A DNA stretch of 64,000 nucleotides from Candidatus Thorarchaeota archaeon (GTDB taxonomy: Archaea > Asgardarchaeota > Thorarchaeia > Thorarchaeales > Thorarchaeaceae). The notes under the pieces were generated by a model, which did no database searches, was not told where the DNA came from, and worked only from the letters and a program-made list of their open reading frames with translations. Both the position numbers and the translations under genes were made by a program. Below are positions 46,860-56,899 of the stretch, piece by piece. The stretch spans positions 1 to 64,000 of the forward strand of contig JAWAQK010000005.1 in the NCBI GenBank assembly GCA_038893995.1, written 5' to 3'. Each line of letters opens with the position of its first letter. Position 1 is the stretch's first letter.

Positions 46860-47138
46860 CTATTCCTTCCAGCTGTTCACGAACTCCTTTCTGAACTCCT
46901 CTACACGTGCCAGCATCTTCTCAAGCGCCTCCCGTAGTACGGTCTTGGCTTGATGATCCCTCGTCCTGAGCGTAAACACAGGATTGCTAAGGAGAGGGTG
47001 TTTCAAAGCGTAGCCCGCGAATTCTACACTGGGCTCTTCGAGAAGAGTCCTCCGCAACAGGTTGCAGAACGAGTGTCCCTCTCCCACTATCTCAATCTTC
47101 AGATCATAGTCGCTGCTTTCAATCAGGTTTATCTTCAT
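46860..47138 (-). CDS. rpoL: RNA polymerase subunit Rpo11 (L)
   Basis: GEGHSFCNLL, FAGY..KHPL. Confidence 0.95.
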   Translation of the reverse strand: MKINLIESSDYDLKIEIVGEGHSFCNLLRRTLLEEPSVEFAGYALKHPLLSNPVFTLRTRDHQAKTVLREALEKMLARVEEFRKEFVNSWKE

Positions 47139-48659: not shown

Positions 48660-49907
48660 ATGGAAAAACCCCTTGACAAGCTATTCGACAAGTTTCTTCA
48701 GGGCCAGGCGATATTCAGAAACAGAAATGCGTTGCGACCAACCTTCGTCCCTGACACACTGCCCTTCAGGGAAGAACAGATGGCCCGGATTGCGTCCATA
48801 CTCGGACCCGCCCTCAGAGGGGCCCCCCCTTCAAACATACTCTGTTACGGCAAGACAGGTACGGGAAAGACTGTAGTTGCAAGGTATGTCCTGAACGTGC
48901 TCGTCGAAAAGGCGAAGGAAAGTGGGGTGAAGGCCCCTATCGCGGCCTATGTCAACTGCCGAATCGTAGGTACGAACTATCGCGTACTCAAGCGTCTTTG
49001 TGACCAGATCGATGCGACAATGCCAGACGGGACAGAGGTTCCATTCACAGGGCTTCCTACGGATGAGATTCGCGATCTCCTGAAGAACAAGCTCGACGAG
49101 GAATCAAACATACTGACGGTGGTCTTGGATGAGGTGGATAGCCTTCTCAAGCGAGATGCCAGCCAGGGTAATGACATACTATATGGCCTTACTCGGATGA
49201 ATGGGGAGCTCGAGAACAGTAGGATATCCATAATTGGAATAAGCAATGATCTCAAGTTCAAGGAGATGCTTGACCCTCGTGTCTTAAGCAGCTTGGGTGA
49301 GGAGGAGATCATATTCCCCCCATACAATGCCGTTGAACTGAAGGGCATTCTCGAGCAGAGAGTGAAGATGGCGTTCAACCCAGGATCGATCGCAGACGAG
49401 GGAGTCATCAATCTTGTCGGTGCGCTAGCTGCTCAGGAACATGGTGATGCAAGGCGTGCCCTTGACCTCCTCAGAACAGCTGGGGAACTTGCAGAGAGGA
49501 GGGGTGAAGACAAGGTGACACAGGACCACGTTCGTGAGGCTCAGAAGATCCTTGAGCGCGATAGTGTTTCTGAAGCTGTCAAGACGTTGCCAATGCAGTC
49601 AAAGGCTGTCCTGCTGGCGGTCTATGCGCTAGTGGGCCGGGGTCACCGTGACATAATGACCGGCGAGTGTTTCAATGTCTACACTGACATTGCAAGGAGC
49701 CTCTCAATAGACACCCTCACACAGAGACGCGTATCAGACCTGATATCCGAACTCGACATGCTTGGTCTCATCAATACGACCGTGATATCAAAGGGAAGAT
49801 ACGGTCGTACAAAGAAGATTCGTCTGGCAGTTAGCAAGAGCCAGATTGGGGCCATCCTCGAGGAAGATCCTCGTCTAAGCAAGCTTGCAAAGACGTTGGT
49901 TCCCTAA
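48660..49907 (+). CDS. cdc6: Orc1/Cdc6 replication initiator
   Basis: GKTGTGKT, LDEVD, LDPRV.SSL, FPPY, GDARRALD, winged-helix SKGRYGRT. Confidence 0.97.
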   Translation: MEKPLDKLFDKFLQGQAIFRNRNALRPTFVPDTLPFREEQMARIASILGPALRGAPPSNILCYGKTGTGKTVVARYVLNVLVEKAKESGVKAPIAAYVNCRIVGTNYRVLKRLCDQIDATMPDGTEVPFTGLPTDEIRDLLKNKLDEESNILTVVLDEVDSLLKRDASQGNDILYGLTRMNGELENSRISIIGISNDLKFKEMLDPRVLSSLGEEEIIFPPYNAVELKGILEQRVKMAFNPGSIADEGVINLVGALAAQEHGDARRALDLLRTAGELAERRGEDKVTQDHVREAQKILERDSVSEAVKTLPMQSKAVLLAVYALVGRGHRDIMTGECFNVYTDIARSLSIDTLTQRRVSDLISELDMLGLINTTVISKGRYGRTKKIRLAVSKSQIGAILEEDPRLSKLAKTLVP

Positions 49908-49924: not shown

Positions 49925-51154
49925 TCACAGGCCGTGCAGTGGAAACACAGTTTCCTTGATCTTGTCAATAGTTTCACTGACTGCGCGACGGATGCTGGGC
50001 TCATTATCACAACTGACCCTGTATGGTCTGTCTGTCCACCCCTCTGCGTAGACTATGACTTTGGAATCGTTACAACGTTCTACCCATCTCGGTGGCAACT
50101 CGGTCGGAAGACGAACTCCTATCAAGTCCGAGAGAATCATAGTCCATATGCGTGCTGCAATCGCCGGATTGTAGCCCCCTCCTCCGACCACAACAAGCCC
50201 GCTGTTCATCTTGCTGACGAGTCTGCGCACGGTTTCAGACATGCGCGCATAGGTGTCGTTTGTCAACATGAGATCTGCCAAAGGATCATACATGTGACAG
50301 TCAGCGCCAATCTCCCAGAATACAAGGTCCGGGGCGTAGACACGCCAGATTGGCACAACCACCTCCTCGAAGGCTCTCCAGAACTCGTAGTCGTCTGTGA
50401 GTGGGGGAAGTGGTATGTTGATCGAGTATCCCTTGCCTGGACCTGTCCCGATCTCCTCAACTCTGCCGGAGCCCGGAAAGAATCCGATGCTCAACTCGTG
50501 CATGGAGATGGTCAATACATTTGGGTCTGAGTAGAATGCTCTTTGAGTGCCATCCCCATGATGCGCGTCCGTATCGAGATACAACACTCTCTTTCCCGGA
50601 TACTCCTTCCTGTATCTCTTCAGGGCTACCACACAGTCGTTGTAGTAGCAGAAGCCTGCCGCCTTGCTCTCGGTCGCGTGATGAAACCCACCAAAGAAAG
50701 AGACCGCATTCTTGAACTTGCCCTCTGCCACCCCCATTGTGGCATCCACAGTTGCGCCTACCGGATATCTGGCGTAGGTGTCCACATTCGGGAATATTGG
50801 GCACTCCTCCGAGTCAAGCCCGAATCTCACCGCATAGGCACTTCCCATGTTGCTGAATAGCTCCACAGTTTCCACATATGATGGGTCATGGTAGATCAGC
50901 AACTCCTCCCGTGTGGCTTCCCGCATCGGAACCAGCATCAAATGCTCCGATTCAGTCAGTCCCGTTTCAACTGCCAAGCCCCAGACAATCTCAAACCTGG
51001 CCCTGTTCCAGTACGGATTCTCGGTGCCCCTCATTCTCCTGATGTCATCGAGTCCGTCAAGCGCCAACATCATGTCAGGACTGAAGAGGACAGTTTCGGC
51101 ATCCATGATACGGTACTTCCTGAATCTTGGTCCTAGTCGGCATCTTTCTCCCAA
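49925..51154 (-). CDS. Zn-dependent deacetylase (HDAC/AcuC family)
   Basis: GGFHHA, GFCYYND, DAHHGDG, GGGGY. Confidence 0.92.
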   Translation of the reverse strand: MGERCRLGPRFRKYRIMDAETVLFSPDMMLALDGLDDIRRMRGTENPYWNRARFEIVWGLAVETGLTESEHLMLVPMREATREELLIYHDPSYVETVELFSNMGSAYAVRFGLDSEECPIFPNVDTYARYPVGATVDATMGVAEGKFKNAVSFFGGFHHATESKAAGFCYYNDCVVALKRYRKEYPGKRVLYLDTDAHHGDGTQRAFYSDPNVLTISMHELSIGFFPGSGRVEEIGTGPGKGYSINIPLPPLTDDYEFWRAFEEVVVPIWRVYAPDLVFWEIGADCHMYDPLADLMLTNDTYARMSETVRRLVSKMNSGLVVVGGGGYNPAIAARIWTMILSDLIGVRLPTELPPRWVERCNDSKVIVYAEGWTDRPYRVSCDNEPSIRRAVSETIDKIKETVFPLHGL

Positions 51155-51218: not shown

Positions 51219-52262
51219 ATGGCGGCGTTTCCTGTGATTTCCCCGTTTGAATTGCTCAGACAGGTTCTCTCTGGAGATCTGGGGGAACGACTGCCCATCT
51301 CGTTATGGAAGCACCATCCATACGCTGATCGCGACCCGGTGAGCCTGGCGGAAGCAGAAACGTCGTTTCATCGGGAGTTTGACCACGATCTGATGAAGAT
51401 CACATTTCATGGCAGGTACCCAGTGGTCGACTGGGGGTGTGTTGCTGTCTATGACGGACGGATATCCGGCTCAACTACTTGCGAATCATGTTCGGTCAAT
51501 TCAGTCAGTGACTGGGAAACACTCGAACCCGTCGATGTGAACTCGGGAGAGTTTGGGAAGCAACTTCGGGCTGTTGAACTCATCAGCAGGTATGCTCACA
51601 ATCGTGTTCCCACGGCTGCAACGGTGTTCGACCCCGCGATGGTGGCAGACAAGCTGTGCTGTAACAGGCTGCTCGACTATGCTTCCGAAGCACCCGAACG
51701 CCTGAAGATCGCGCTACAGATGATAACGGGGGTAATGGTCGAGTTTGGACGAGCATGTCTCGAGATAGGCTGTGATGGACTATTCATAGCCTCTCAGCAT
51801 TCTACCAGCTCAGTGAGTGATGCGTTCTTCCGAGAGTTTGTCCTTCCCTATCTGTCTGAACTTATTTCCAAACTTCGGTCTAGGACAAGAATGCTGTTAG
51901 TTCATCTCCACAGCGTGGGCCCCAGTGATGAGGTCCGACTTGCAGAGGTATCACGAATATTTGGTATTGATGCCCTCAACTGGGACGCGCAGGGCTCGGG
52001 CCCCGGGCTTAAGGAGGGGAAACGGATCAGCAGGAGAAGTGTGATGGGTGGCATTGATCAAGATGGCTTGTTGAGGACTGGCACGCATGACCAAGTTGCC
52101 TCAGGGGTGATCAGCGCCATCAGAAACGCCGGGCTCAGGTCGCTGGTAGTGGCCCCTGGCTGTGTCATTCCAATTGACGTACCATCTGAGAACATCCACT
52201 CAGCGCTGAGTATTGTCCGATCTATTGATCCATACTCGAAGGAGTGGTCTCCATTCGAGTGA
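51219..52262 (+). CDS. Uroporphyrinogen decarboxylase / MtaA-like TIM barrel
   Basis: PISLWKH, LHS, GGIDQ, VAPGCVIP...ENI. Confidence 0.8.
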   Translation: MAAFPVISPFELLRQVLSGDLGERLPISLWKHHPYADRDPVSLAEAETSFHREFDHDLMKITFHGRYPVVDWGCVAVYDGRISGSTTCESCSVNSVSDWETLEPVDVNSGEFGKQLRAVELISRYAHNRVPTAATVFDPAMVADKLCCNRLLDYASEAPERLKIALQMITGVMVEFGRACLEIGCDGLFIASQHSTSSVSDAFFREFVLPYLSELISKLRSRTRMLLVHLHSVGPSDEVRLAEVSRIFGIDALNWDAQGSGPGLKEGKRISRRSVMGGIDQDGLLRTGTHDQVASGVISAIRNAGLRSLVVAPGCVIPIDVPSENIHSALSIVRSIDPYSKEWSPFE

Positions 52263-52555: not shown

Positions 52556-55500
52556 CTATGTGTCCTCCTGTCGCAGGAGCCTGGCCTTCGACTGGAATAT
52601 GGGGCCGATAGTACCCATTATGAACCTGACGAACCCCTCGTCCTCTGTCACAACCCCTACGATCTCCTCCTTCTTTGCTGAAGCTGGGGCCAGCAGCATC
52701 TCCTCGCTGTCCCGGATACAGGCATATACGTCTCGTTCAGGTCTTGTTCGAATTCTGACGTTTCCCTTCCCGATCAGTGCCTTTGCCTTCTCCATGATCC
52801 TCGGATCTTCTGAAACTACAATTTCGATGCCGATTGCGCTCTTACTCCTAGCTATCATGTCTTCAGGCACCTCATCATAGCTGGGAAGGACCAAAGTCAC
52901 TTTGGACTTGGCTCTCTGAACCATATCCTGAATGTGTGATAGGACTGCCTTGTGGGTCACAACAGTCCATGTCTTCTTCGCACCAGGATATCCTGAATTG
53001 ACAAGCCTGTCCCACCCCACACGGAGGATCTTGGCAACCTCAGTGCCTTCTCCTTTTACTGAGACTGAACTTGGGAACGCTCTCTCGAAGAACGCATTCG
53101 TGTTCCCAACAAGATCGCTCTTCATCGCCCCCTGTGTCAGCCCGTTGATCTCACTGACAAGGGAGTCTGAAAGGGAACCAAGTTCGTTGCACAGTGAATC
53201 GACAAGAGTTTCCACGTCCTTTCTGAAGGATATTGTTTCACTCTGTAACGACTTCAATGATGATGATACTGTTTCCACAGATTTGCTCTTGAATTCCTCA
53301 GCAGTCTCTGTCAGTGTCTGGAGTAGCTGCTCACCTGACTTGTCTGTGGCAACCTTTGAAGCGTCTAGATGTGTCGTGATCTCGGACTCCGACTCCACTA
53401 CAAGCGTGTTGAGCTTCTCATTGATGCCGTTGACCTCGGTGTTGACATATTCCATGAGATCGTCGGTCACACGTTTCAAATTGGACTCAAGATCACTCAC
53501 TGTGGACAAGAGTCCATCTCCCAGCACACGAAACTCTGTTGTGAGCCGTGAGTCAATGGTCTTGCATTGCTCCGACAATGTATTGGCCGTCGCATCCACC
53601 GTCTGTGTTATTTCCTGTGTGATTGTTTCAAGTTGTCTTGAAATCTCTGAACTGGCTTCCTCGAACATCTCAGCTATTCCGCTAATGACCTCGTCTGACT
53701 CATGACCGAGTGTTTCCCTGCGCCTCTCAAGAGCCTCCTCAAGTTCCGCAAGCGTCGTTTCAAACTTGTGCTCTGTTGCCTCGATTGCACTGTCAGCCTG
53801 ACTACTCACAGAGCTGCGCAAGCCACTCGCAAGTGTCCTCATCTCTGTTTCAATACGTTGCCCCACCGCTTCAGCCGCATTCCCGTGCTTGGTAACGATC
53901 TCGTTGAGACTATTCCTCTGGATCTTCAGCAGTTCCTCGGTGTCAGATAACACTTGAGCAAAGGACTTCTCAGTGTGCTCATTCAGTTCCGCCATCATGT
54001 TATCCATCTGTGTTCGAGCTTGTTGCTCTGCGTTGTCTGCCTCTACTAGTATGTGCTGCAGCTCCTTTCTGACAGCTTCCAGTAATTGGTTCAATATCTC
54101 TTCGTGTGACCTCAGACGCTCGGTAACAGTCCCCTGGACATCAGCCTGGATTTTCTCATGTATCGAGTGACTGTTCATGATCTGCTTCTTTGTCAGATCA
54201 ATAATCTTGTTGCTCTGCTGGGTAAGTCTACTGTTCGATTCTTTCACTGCACTATCGGCAATTTGCTGTATCTCCGCAGATGCATCTTGGACAATCCCCG
54301 TCATTTGCTGCTGTAGCTTCTGTGCCATCCTGTTTAGACTCTCTATGGTCCTCTCTGCGACCGCCTTGATACTTGATTCGGTGGCCTTCAAAGTGGCGCT
54401 CAGTTCCTCTGTGATGGAGGACATGGCAGTCTGAAGAAGGGTCTCCTCTGCCTTTAGTGCCTCCTGGTTTCGTAATACCAATGATTGACCTATTCCATTC
54501 AACGAGTCTCTGAACTCGGTCCTGGCATGTCCCACTATCATCGAGGTCTCCTGATCAATATCTTTCACTGCCGCCGATGTCGCAGCTGACAGTGTTTGAA
54601 TTGAACCAAGTCCTATTGTTCTTGATCTGTCTCTGGCATCGGTTACACTGTGCTTCAATGCGCCAAGGAGGTCCGTGATGTCTTTACTGATGGAGGACAG
54701 TGATGCCTCGGCCGTTTCCTGAAACTGTTTCAAATCTGATGAGACTGAGTCTTGATGATCCCTGAGGACCAGACCGACCTTGTCAATGAACAAGTCAGTT
54801 TCCGATGCGACATGCTGCTTCTGAGCATCTGCTCGTTCTCTCTCGGATGCAATCAGCTCCTGAACAGTTGTCGCAAGGGCCCCGTGTACATCATTCAACA
54901 GTCTTTGTGCCTGGTCGACCTGCTTCTTCACCAGCTCGACAATCTGCTTCCGCTCAACCCCCATCTTCTCTGAAAACGACTTCGACTCTGAATCAATCAC
55001 CTGAGCACCCTGTGCAGCAACAAGACTCATTGCCTGCCTTGATTGTTCAGCGGCCACCCCCAGAATGGACCTTTCCTCTTCAAGCACCTTGTCGATTGAC
55101 TTGGTGAATGTTCCGCGGCTCGATGCCAGACTGGATGTCGTCGACCTACCAAGGCCTTCGATACTGGACACTATTCCCTTTCGTGTGTTGTCGATCGTGG
55201 TTGTGGTTTCTGACGACCATCTTTTCATTCGCGTGATCAGAGAGGTTCCAGCAGACGAAACATTGTTCTTGACTTGGTCAGTCAGAGGTGCAATCGTATT
55301 GCCAGCTTTGTCTTTCCATTCGGTGAATGCATTCTGAAGAGATGCCTTGCAGGACTCGAGAGCCACATCCATCTTTCTTGTTGAGGAATCAGCAATCTTG
55401 GAGAGTCGCTCCGAGGAGTTGCTCCTCAGTTTCGCGATGGAGTCCTTCTTATCAGTCAGCGTTCGAACAGTAGACTCTGTCAAATCACTGAGTTGGTTCT

Positions 55501-55822
55501 TGATGTTCTTCACAAGTGTTTCTACAGCTTGCTTTGTTTCTTCGCGTAGCTGCTCGACCCTTTCCCCAACAGTTTCAGCCTCTCTTGCCAGGCTCTCAAA
55601 TGGCAACACAGCCTGATATCGTGGTGTTACACCCCCAATCTCAACTAACATCCCACCATTCTTCAGCTTGAGCACTACTTTCTCAATCGTCTCTAGCGGT
55701 AGACCTGTGATTAGAGAGAGATCGCCCGTAGTCACATTTCCGGTGGCCATGGCCAGTGTGTACACTCTGGCTTCGTCTTCGTTCAACCCTGAGATTCCCG
55801 ATATCAGATCCTTTCCTGACAT
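52556..55822 (-). CDS. TrmB-like wHTH, ~870-aa hendecad helical region and TrmB-type C-terminal domain
   Basis: GLNEDEARVY...GVTPRYQAV; long amphipathic region; WTV...IQDMVQRAKSKV...RDSEEMLLA. Confidence 0.85.
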   Translation of the reverse strand: MSGKDLISGISGLNEDEARVYTLAMATGNVTTGDLSLITGLPLETIEKVVLKLKNGGMLVEIGGVTPRYQAVLPFESLAREAETVGERVEQLREETKQAVETLVKNIKNQLSDLTESTVRTLTDKKDSIAKLRSNSSERLSKIADSSTRKMDVALESCKASLQNAFTEWKDKAGNTIAPLTDQVKNNVSSAGTSLITRMKRWSSETTTTIDNTRKGIVSSIEGLGRSTTSSLASSRGTFTKSIDKVLEEERSILGVAAEQSRQAMSLVAAQGAQVIDSESKSFSEKMGVERKQIVELVKKQVDQAQRLLNDVHGALATTVQELIASERERADAQKQHVASETDLFIDKVGLVLRDHQDSVSSDLKQFQETAEASLSSISKDITDLLGALKHSVTDARDRSRTIGLGSIQTLSAATSAAVKDIDQETSMIVGHARTEFRDSLNGIGQSLVLRNQEALKAEETLLQTAMSSITEELSATLKATESSIKAVAERTIESLNRMAQKLQQQMTGIVQDASAEIQQIADSAVKESNSRLTQQSNKIIDLTKKQIMNSHSIHEKIQADVQGTVTERLRSHEEILNQLLEAVRKELQHILVEADNAEQQARTQMDNMMAELNEHTEKSFAQVLSDTEELLKIQRNSLNEIVTKHGNAAEAVGQRIETEMRTLASGLRSSVSSQADSAIEATEHKFETTLAELEEALERRRETLGHESDEVISGIAEMFEEASSEISRQLETITQEITQTVDATANTLSEQCKTIDSRLTTEFRVLGDGLLSTVSDLESNLKRVTDDLMEYVNTEVNGINEKLNTLVVESESEITTHLDASKVATDKSGEQLLQTLTETAEEFKSKSVETVSSSLKSLQSETISFRKDVETLVDSLCNELGSLSDSLVSEINGLTQGAMKSDLVGNTNAFFERAFPSSVSVKGEGTEVAKILRVGWDRLVNSGYPGAKKTWTVVTHKAVLSHIQDMVQRAKSKVTLVLPSYDEVPEDMIARSKSAIGIEIVVSEDPRIMEKAKALIGKGNVRIRTRPERDVYACIRDSEEMLLAPASAKKEEIVGVVTEDEGFVRFIMGTIGPIFQSKARLLRQEDT

Positions 55823-55887: not shown

Positions 55888-56217
55888 CTAAGACACGAGT
55901 TCCTCTAGAAGAGGTTTGATCTTCTTGTAGAATTCCGCGATCAGGATGTTTCTGGGATTATCAGAGTCCAGAATGAAGAGCCTGATCTGTTGTCCAACTC
56001 TTATCTCCTTAACAAACTTCATGTCTATCAGTGGTTGCATCACCCTATGGACTGTAGAGTGTGCCAGCCCGGTTTCCCTTGCAGCTCTACCAAGATTGAG
56101 GAACTCCTTGGGGCGATCCAGAAAAAGCTGAACTATCCTTGTCTGCGCTCTTGATGCAAATACCGTTTCTAATAGTCGTTTCTCCTTTGGTACCCCTCTC
56201 TTGGCCCTAGCTCCCAC
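55888..56217 (-). CDS. Small winged-helix DNA-binding protein
   Basis: VFASRAQTRIVQLF...ARETGLAHSTV...DNP; GTG start overlaps the pyrH end. Confidence 0.8.
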   Translation of the reverse strand: MGARAKRGVPKEKRLLETVFASRAQTRIVQLFLDRPKEFLNLGRAARETGLAHSTVHRVMQPLIDMKFVKEIRVGQQIRLFILDSDNPRNILIAEFYKKIKPLLEELVS

Positions 56218-56899
56218 CGGTGACCACGCTCCCGACTGACTCGCCCGCAAGAGCTCTCCTAAGGTTCTCGATTACCGTGCCGTTGAATATGACCGTTCTT
56301 ATTCTCGACCTAGCAATTATCCGTATGGCGACTGGATCGAAGAGTTCATACTCCCCTGCTCTGACTCCCGTGTGAGTGAGAATACTGTTGAGTTCCTCAA
56401 CACTAAGCGTGTGAAGGATCTTCGCACCAGGTTCTCTCGGATTCCTGTCGAATACACCATCTACATTTGTTGCGTTGAGCAGTTTCTCAGCCCCCATGAC
56501 CTCTGCAGTAAGTGCCGCCACTGCGTTTGTCGACTGACCAGGTGTGAGGCCCCCCATGACGACTATCCTATCAGAACACAGTGCTCTCTCGAATTCCTCG
56601 AGGGTCTCGGGAACCGATGGATATGCAGACTCTCCCAGTGCCACTATCATCAGTTCTGCATTGTGACGCGCCATCTTGATCCCGAGCCAATCGCATTGAG
56701 ACTCATTTGCTCCAAGCTCTCGTGCAGCAGTGACGAACTCCCTTGCTGCCTTGCCGCCACCGACCACAAGTGCAATCCTGTTTCCCTTCAGAAAGAAGTC
56801 TCTGACCACTGATGCATATTCTCTGATTGTGTTGGTCTTTAGCCGACCGTCGTCACCATACAGAAGGGATCCTCCGATCTTCAGGACAACTCGCATCAT
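56207..56899 (-). CDS. pyrH: Uridylate kinase
   Basis: KIGGS, VVGGG..AR, D.LGI, PGQSTNAVA, TNVDGV. Confidence 0.95.
   Translation of the reverse strand: MMRVVLKIGGSLLYGDDGRLKTNTIREYASVVRDFFLKGNRIALVVGGGKAAREFVTAARELGANESQCDWLGIKMARHNAELMIVALGESAYPSVPETLEEFERALCSDRIVVMGGLTPGQSTNAVAALTAEVMGAEKLLNATNVDGVFDRNPREPGAKILHTLSVEELNSILTHTGVRAGEYELFDPVAIRIIARSRIRTVIFNGTVIENLRRALAGESVGSVVTGGS

Follow-up and report, generated by a model that had tools for sequence, protein, structure and literature searches.

A TrmB-family protein of Thorarchaeota with a hendecad rod of conserved length and a predicted antiparallel pairing register

The protein described here is encoded in a 64,000-nt stretch of DNA from Candidatus Thorarchaeota archaeon (contig JAWAQK010000005.1, assembly GCA_038893995.1; this whole stretch is called the window below) by an open reading frame (ORF) on the reverse strand, 52556..55822 (-), with a 1088-aa product. 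A TrmB-type winged helix-turn-helix (wHTH) at its N-terminus and a phospholipase D-like (PLD-like) domain at its C-terminus are separated by a rod of 76 consecutive hendecads, the length of which is kept to the residue in most of the orthologues that were aligned. Large-versus-small core packing and flanking salt bridges at i+j=1008 and 1012 show a predicted pairing of the two halves of this rod, ANTIPARALLEL (antiparallel), in which arm 1 (aa ~96-503) lies against arm 2 (aa ~507-914) at i+j=1010. This exact register takes the place of the free extended rod or amphipathic lipid helix that had been proposed in the first-pass annotation of the same DNA. What is new here is the residue-exact pairing register obtained from charge and volume complementarity, together with a map of the indels in the rod and the caveat that the head is acidic. 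Coordinates are positions in the window, and residue numbers refer to the 1088-aa protein unless stated otherwise. The gene comprises the following features, listed from the N-terminus of the product:

55595..55789 (-), TrmB-type winged helix-turn-helix (aa 12-76; Pfam PF01978 and TrmBL2 profile match)
54314..55594 (-), rod arm 1, hendecad coiled coil (aa 77-503; periodicity, constant phase, one helix in the AlphaFold2 model)
54128..54498 (-), central zone of the rod (aa 442-565; paired conserved patches, site of length variation)
54302..54313 (-), rod centre, a dyad or a tip (aa 504-507; break in the AlphaFold2 model, mirror centre 505)
53087..54301 (-), rod arm 2, hendecad coiled coil (aa 508-912; predicted antiparallel to arm 1 at i+j=1010)
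52973..53086 (-), linker and first helices between rod and C-terminal domain (aa 913-950; AlphaFold2 helices 908-915 and 920-941)
52559..52972 (-), TrmB/TrmBL2-type PLD-like domain without HKD motif (aa 951-1088; PF11495 and Foldseek)

Periodicity and length of the rod

The 11-residue, nearly proline-free helix of the first-pass annotation, and the Fourier comparison of periods 3.67 and 3.5 that it had called for, were both borne out: the hydropathy of aa 81-930 gave a single sharp peak at a period of 3.667 (power 956; shuffled controls 9.5+-9.1, z=104), the period of 3.5 stayed at chance level, and only 2 Pro occur in these 850 aa. In 44-residue windows the hydropathy phase remained within ~+-45 degrees over aa ~67 to ~902; a slip by one residue would move the hendecad phase by 98 degrees. 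Because the phase is constant over this range, the rod forms 76 hendecads in a single register, equal to ~836 aa of helix. When the rod was stacked by 11, positions a, d, e and h were hydrophobic in 82, 57, 51 and 66% of cases, respectively, which is the pattern of an 11/3 hendecad, and the non-core positions were rich in Ser, Thr, Glu, Asp, and Gln. The 3.67 peak and similar phase tracks were present in all orthologues, and the net charge of the rod was -41 in this protein and between -23 and -75 among the orthologues.

To our knowledge, this is one of the longest uninterrupted hendecad coiled coils. The a-d-e-h 11-residue repeat is common to known hendecad coils such as the right-handed coiled coil (RHCC) of tetrabrachion and the E/G peripheral stalk of rotary ATPases, which we take to be much shorter and parallel; unlike these, the rod has 76 consecutive hendecads in one register and a predicted antiparallel pairing. 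Repeats of this type lead to a straight or slightly right-handed coil (PMC3293630, PMC6131620).

Rod length was measured in 16 Thorarchaeial orthologues as the distance from the invariant P74 of the wing to the invariant W952 that opens the C-terminal domain (C-domain). This distance was 878 aa in 12 of the 16, one of which belongs to another family, 876-877 aa in three, with differences located only at aa 922-924, after the rod, and 856 aa in one. Among the orthologues of the 878 class, differences of 1-3 residues were confined to the linker (aa 913-950), and no indel was found anywhere in the rod of the 878-class alignment, in which gapless rod identity to orthologues is 11-20%. Because 76 hendecads are kept without an indel at such identity, the alignment shows the rod itself to be, as far as sequence can tell, under strong selection. 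A length so exact at only 11-20% sequence identity implies that the length itself would be the function, for example in a ruler, a spacer or a tether.

Further orthologues fell into discrete P74-W952 classes of 856, 849, and 764 aa. The 856 class has a deletion of 22 aa at ~517-538, the 849 class has the same deletion plus one of 7 aa at ~489-495, and the 764 class lacks a single block of 114 aa, for which the best placement is 442-557 (centre 498-501) and a centre at 504-506 scores nearly equally. Every deletion thus maps within aa 442-557, i.e., the central ~115 residues of the 836-residue rod. The deletion sizes of 22, 7, and 114 belong to classes 0, 7, and 4 modulo 11, hold the helical phase within +-33 degrees, and leave the hydrophobic stripe continuous, for which the probability by chance is ~2%, an argument based on three deletion events.

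Antiparallel pairing register

For the charge test, the mean product of charges was taken along each anti-diagonal for residues i in aa 100-440 and j in aa 558-900. Minima were found at i+j=1012 (-0.037) and 1008 (-0.027), compared with a mean of 0.004 and a standard deviation of 0.008 over 220 registers, and same-phase registers 11 away were near background. The product at 1012 was negative in 24/24 orthologues, this protein alone gave -0.040 and -0.039 at 1012 and 1008, and none of 1000 hendecad-block shuffles reached either minimum. The offsets of +-2 from 1010 correspond to the flanking salt-bridge geometry of an antiparallel coil (pairs b-i, e-f, g-k, and e-b), and the basic residues are located mostly at position e in arm 1 and at position i in arm 2.

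At register 1010, core position a is mapped onto h and d onto e. The anti-correlation of core volumes was strongest at this register (r=-0.26) among those of the same phase, followed by 999 (r=-0.13), with the remaining ones between ~-0.1 and +0.18. For instance, W169 is opposite A/G841, and the lone orthologue with N169 (L020) has a compensating L841; other large-small core pairs are Y/L309-G701 and F/M356-G/A654, and near the centre S455-H555 (H555 being conserved), L496-A514, and L485-A525 face each other. The conservation profile (11-residue smoothed) was also mirror-symmetric at i+j=1010 (r=0.64; reached by 0/500 hendecad-block shuffles), but this is a weak route and the register is not rested on it. 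The mirror centre is 505 by conservation, charge, and volume. In single sequences, the charge centres were at 505-506 in close orthologues and at ~614-617 in the ~1300-aa class, near the midpoint of the rod, and the test was too noisy to place the centres of distant family members.

The full-length AlphaFold2 (AF2) model, calculated with 34 sequences, contains helices at 77-503, 508-778, 801-901, 908-915, and 920-941 (DSSP). Its only central break is located at 504-507, with a predicted local distance difference test (pLDDT) score <50 over 495-514, and a further break in this sequence is found at 779-800. In Foldseek searches with this model, whole-length alignments were obtained only with SMC-type chains that fold back (MukB, condensin Smc, JetC, Smc5/6). 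We infer the fold-back in the model from the DSSP break and these alignments. With the halves antiparallel, the N- and C-terminal domains would therefore lie together at the rod end, as in TrmBL2.

The terminal domains

The first-pass annotation had placed a TrmB-type wHTH at the N-terminus and a PLD-like TrmB domain at the C-terminus, and the profile and structure searches that it suggested agreed with both. The match of Pfam TrmB (PF01978) to aa 12-73 scores 28.5 bits (cut-off 25.6), and a profile of the N-termini had TrmBL2 (5bpd, 5bqt, 5box) as best match in the PDB (E 6.5e-7, aa 5-94), in an alignment that covers the winged helix and the beginning of the long helix behind it. G28, T31, R68, and P74 are invariant and G33 and G64 nearly so among 18 aligned sequences. 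At the other end, Regulator_TrmB (PF11495) matches the isolated aa 925-1088 with 27.6 bits (cut-off 22.2) and was matched in 16/16 orthologues, over profile positions 3-122 of 233 only, which is the PLD-like half; the sugar-binding half is not present, and the protein ends there. This kinship was missed by the full-length Pfam scan and was revealed by the scan of the isolated domain together with a fold search, and comparison of the C-domain with the PDB by sequence gave nothing meaningful with a single or a profile query. The AF2 model of the C-terminal part (16 orthologues; pLDDT 83.7, predicted template-modelling score (pTM) 0.79) had TrmBL2 (5bpd, 5bpi, 5bqt, 5box) and TrmB (2f5t, 3qph) as top Foldseek matches (E 5e-10 to 6e-8; for 2f5t, E 1.3e-8 and a root-mean-square deviation of 2.7 over 137 columns), followed by folds of the PLD superfamily (F13, PLD, NucT, FAM83, Zucchini, and Nuc). 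Within the protein, this domain shows the highest conservation, with 46-63% identity to Thorarchaeial orthologues and 40% to the orthologue from the second family.

Catalytic members of the phospholipase D superfamily share the fold alone with the rod protein: the HxK(x)4D (HKD) motif, searched as H.K....D, was not found anywhere in the protein, and the only His residues of the C-domain are H957 and H963. As already noted at first pass, the 1088 aa contain neither a Walker A motif nor a transmembrane (TM) segment (highest 19-residue Kyte-Doolittle mean 1.12), and there were no SMC or AAA matches in Pfam or NCBIfam. By Pfam thresholds, the predicted protein is a member of the TrmB family, yet neither a TrmB nor a TrmBL2 equivalog in NCBIfam (18.1 bits against a cut-off of 600, and 18.3 against 530 for NF041141), and because the latter score is so far under its cut-off, it is judged not to be a TrmBL2 orthologue.

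TrmBL2 (TK0471/PF0496; PDB 5bpd, 5bpi, 5bqt, 5box) is a nucleoid-associated protein of Thermococcales that coats DNA non-specifically, with paired winged helices placed by an amphipathic dimerisation helix (PMC4877046); it is also reported to be a roadblock to SMC (PMC11840125). TrmBL2 gave the best PDB match at both ends of the rod protein, in the sequence search with the N-terminus (E 6.5e-7) and in the fold search with the C-domain (E 5e-10), and the two share the order of an extended wHTH, an amphipathic pairing helix, and a PLD-like C-domain without sugar subdomain. In TrmBL2 the helix is short (~35 aa, in a protein of ~264 aa), whereas that of the rod protein has 836 aa and is predicted to be self-paired antiparallel. 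The first ~35 aa of the rod align to the TrmBL2 dimerisation helix and are its best-conserved part. Both Pfam domains are likewise common to the sugar regulators TrmB and TrmBL1 (PDB 3qph, 2f5t; PF01978 and PF11495), of which the rod protein lacks the sugar-binding barrel.

The head had been called DNA-binding at first pass, which is doubtful. The net charge of the winged helix is -3 here, -2 to -8 in the Thorarchaeial orthologues, and 0 and -1 in two distant homologues, and the isoelectric point of the whole protein is 4.5-5.4. The recognition helix of TrmBL2, PRTYDVLRSL, aligns to EEVEEILKKL in the family consensus and to ETIEKVVLKL in this protein, so that the PRTY stretch is replaced by EEVE or ETIE, with R68-Y69 of the wing retained.

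Fold-back, dimer, and other readings

We consider an intramolecular fold-back with an arm of ~63 nm (half of 836 x 0.15 nm) to be a somewhat better than even proposition, and the length of over 100 nm stated in the first-pass annotation would hold only if the pairing were between two chains. The signals for the register fit a fold-back and a ANTIPARALLEL dimer (antiparallel) equally well, and several further results count against the fold-back or limit the case for the pairing. Conserved Gly or Pro residues are absent from aa 495-515, where the columns are helix-favouring; the central core residues L496, L499, I507, and A514 are conserved, and the hendecad amplitude is highest at the centre. 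The deletion sizes of 22, 7, and 114 favour a helix that is continuous through the dyad. The full-length AF2 model has modest confidence (pLDDT 66.9, pTM 0.28), and reaches template-modelling scores (TM-scores) of no more than 0.05-0.09, which is very low, with the SMC chains. High-pass filtering left the peak of the conservation mirror at 1007-1010 but without significance (p 0.04-0.45), and mutual information and hydropathy covariation along the anti-diagonals gave no clear register with the few sequences available (24). These features of the centre and the stripe-keeping deletions would suit a bipolar strut, in which two extended chains run antiparallel (residue i of chain A against 1010-i of chain B), bridge two distant sites over ~125 nm, as in the bridging rod of the first-pass annotation, and carry at each end a composite TrmBL2-like head to which one chain contributes the wHTH and the other the PLD-like domain. 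We regard this strut as possible though on the unlikely side: the AF2 break at exactly the centre, 504-507, favours a fold-back, even if a monomer prediction would fold back regardless and is not independent, the deletion events number only three, and many helical hairpins have unconserved loops. A parallel, in-register homo-oligomer like tetrabrachion or an extended TrmB dimer helix, in which 125 nm would separate all of the winged helices, gathered at one end, from all of the PLD-like domains at the other, as in the extended rod of the first-pass annotation, is strongly disfavoured. Such an assembly would be in line with the amphipathic helix of TrmBL2, which promotes dimers and sets the HTHs for two adjacent major grooves (PMC4877046), with the a-d-e-h core that is classic for right-handed parallel coils, and with a conserved Asn (N452) at an a position; however, it predicts no mirror between the arms, whereas charge peaks at 1008/1012 and a volume signal at 1010 are seen, nor does it predict that all indels are central, that basic residues occupy different positions in the two arms, that AF2 places a break in the centre, or that whole-length alignments are of the SMC type.

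Two readings would do without a permanent rod or without a function for it, and we give each of them very little credence. In the first of these, the 11-mer bundle would open onto a membrane in the manner of apolipoproteins or perilipins while anchored by the head, i.e., the tether between DNA and membrane that was put forward at first pass. Exchangeable apolipoproteins use 11/22-mers and antiparallel bundles, Pfam Apolipoprotein (PF01442) matches four stretches of the rod (E 1.8e-19), ApoLp-III matches weakly, and ApoA-IV is among the PDB sequence matches. The PF01442 score of 70.6 bits is nevertheless under the Pfam cut-off of 90, the rod lacks punctuation by Pro, its core stripe is narrow with large residues, of the coiled-coil type, its net charge is acidic, and the exact length and inter-arm register argue for a permanent rod. 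Profiles of ZorA tails match equally well (PADLOC ZorA profiles, aa 459-911, E down to 3.9e-15, tail positions only), which suggests that hendecad-type periodicity, and probably not homology, is what these proteins share with the rod; it has neither a signal peptide nor a MotA-like membrane domain. Kinship with ZorA was rejected, since only the tail of the profile is matched and a TM segment or MotA/ExbB-like domain is missing, as was kinship with LeoA and the apolipoproteins, for which the matches cover coiled-coil parts only and reflect periodicity. The protein is just as unlikely to be a conventional transcription regulator of the TrmB type in which the long linker serves no purpose of its own. 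Both end domains exceed TrmB-family Pfam cut-offs, and one database source labels a homologue 'sugar-specific transcriptional regulator TrmB', but the protein has no sugar-binding subdomain and an acidic recognition helix, and the 76 hendecads without indel at 11-20% identity point to selection on the rod.

Proposed role

Our preferred description, held with a confidence slightly above even, is that of a structural protein without enzymatic activity that has its origin in the TrmBL2 branch of the TrmB family. Its most likely role, as far as the sequence allows, would be that of a passive spacer or tether with the head and a near-centre patch as docking sites. In the simplest form it would be an intramolecular fold-back arm of ~63 nm with an SMC/Rad50-like topology and no ATPase, and dimers of the TrmBL2-like heads may form by way of the ~35 conserved residues with which the rod begins. 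Chromatin or a protein partner would be the docking site of this head, and a second partner would be bound by a conserved patch near the tip (aa 445-463 with 547-565, at a distance of ~50 residues from the centre); conserved paired residues in this central zone are G445/N452/L456 with R552/H555/I562. No nucleotide would be consumed, and the step with the least support is that the protein would act as a passive spacer or tether of fixed length, with length as the selected property. Two points weigh against this role. Canonical DNA binding by the head, and with it docking on chromatin through DNA, is doubtful because the winged helix is acidic and residues of its recognition helix are replaced by Glu; the head may instead dock on protein or use the wing only. 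The function is, moreover, one that we infer throughout, and no conserved operon partner accompanies it. From the ATP-independent bridging rod or tether of the first-pass annotation, the rod and the lack of an ATPase have thus been retained, whereas its membrane side found no support and DNA binding is doubtful.

The arms of SMC proteins (MukB 9gm7/7nyx, condensin Smc 6yvu, JetC 9qe0, Smc5/6) and of Rad50 combine an N- plus C-terminal head with a long antiparallel coil, as is predicted for the rod protein, and arm length is conserved in SMC-family arms and rod protein alike. The rod protein differs in having no ABC ATPase head and neither a hinge nor a zinc hook, the centre being plain helix, and its register is purely hendecad, whereas SMC arms typically show register breaks. 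With TM-scores of 0.05-0.09, this likeness is an analogy of predicted topology and not homology. More tentatively still, and we think improbably, the family could be an Asgard-wide, nucleotide-independent 'molecular ruler', in which a TrmBL2-derived head on a fixed-length SMC-like arm (63 or 125 nm) bridges chromatin or a head partner and the structure bound by the near-centre patch. If true, the closest archaeal relatives of eukaryotes would have an organiser of the nucleoid or the cytoskeleton of a class not recognised before. The organisation of the Asgard cell and nucleoid is largely unknown and bears on the origin of eukaryotic cell architecture. The register i+j=1010 makes the structure of the rod directly testable, and the rod offers a clean natural model for the design of antiparallel hendecad coiled coils.

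Distribution and a second family member

Word-indexed homologue searches returned 2 proteins only, and whole-genome and exhaustive profile searches were required to recover the family. Most genera of the host family have full-length orthologues (~1070-1120 aa), which also occur in another family of that order, and distant relatives are found in the Heimdall and Kari groups. Of 1.84 billion representatives searched with a profile of the C-domain, only 365 clusters reached E<=1e-3, in proteins of 300-1800 aa in which the domain is nearly always located at, or within a few residues of, the C-terminus, and nearly all of the long ones show a period peak at 3.66-3.68. The same profile matched 143/151 sampled Asgard genomes (1-5 copies each), 73/77 of the high-quality ones, and 51/53 genera, so that a family derived from a known chromatin protein is near-universal in the sampled Asgard genomes. 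No paper on a TrmB-headed giant coiled coil was found in literature searches aimed at this architecture, nor any in which the family had been characterised as a plain regulator, in agreement with its description as undescribed in the first-pass annotation.

A second member of the family is encoded on another contig of the same genome (G000, contig C1; L044:7172-11092 (-)). This 1306-aa paralogue has a TrmB wHTH with 25.0 bits, just below the cut-off, and an Apolipoprotein-like rod. Upstream on the same strand are located the genes of a 295-aa protein without Pfam match (L044:11107-11994 (-)) and of a 311-aa coiled-coil protein (L044:12065-13000 (-)); no STAND ATPase was recognised beside the paralogue at L044.

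Gene neighbourhood

Upstream of the rod gene, the following feature was found:

55888..56250 (-), small wHTH gene (HTH_IclR-like), directly upstream of the rod gene (Pfam PF09339, E 9.5e-6)

This ORF of 120 aa, which had drawn attention at first pass, is indeed located 65 nt from the rod gene. Its longest reading begins with a TTG codon and shares 44 nt with the 3' end of pyrH (56207-56899 (-)), and the true start is probably located further downstream because the orthologues have 99-109 aa. It matches the PADLOC candidate defence family PDC-M05A weakly (E 5e-8) and through the HTH only. The same-strand upstream genes of the block are the basic wHTH (63-71% identity) and an archaeal pyrH, and a class I aminoacyl-tRNA synthetase is divergent. 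The synteny check limited this linkage to one subclade: the wHTH-pyrH-synthetase block was seen ahead of the rod gene in 5 distinct genomes only, and rod-gene orthologues outside this subclade have unrelated neighbours and no wHTH in their flanks, among which no family-wide operon partner was found.

Beyond the 3' end of the rod gene lie an HDAC-family gene (49925-51154 (-); PF00850, E 5e-84) and a URO-D-like gene (51219-52262 (+); PF01208), both kept in the same subclade as the pyrH-wHTH block. An Orc1/Cdc6 gene is located ~2.6 kb from the rod gene (48660-49907 (+)), and a Cdc6 homologue (L020:5168-6241; 29% identity, E 6e-40) adjoins the orthologue from the other family, L020; the proximity of orc1/cdc6 to rod genes may be coincidental, and no convincing origin-type repeats were found near it between positions 47000 and 52600. 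Two inverted repeats, with arms at 52228-52245/52411-52428 and 52381-52394/52474-52487, are located around the point where the convergent URO-D-like gene ends and in the ~290-nt gap that separates it from the rod gene; they may be terminators or a structured element.

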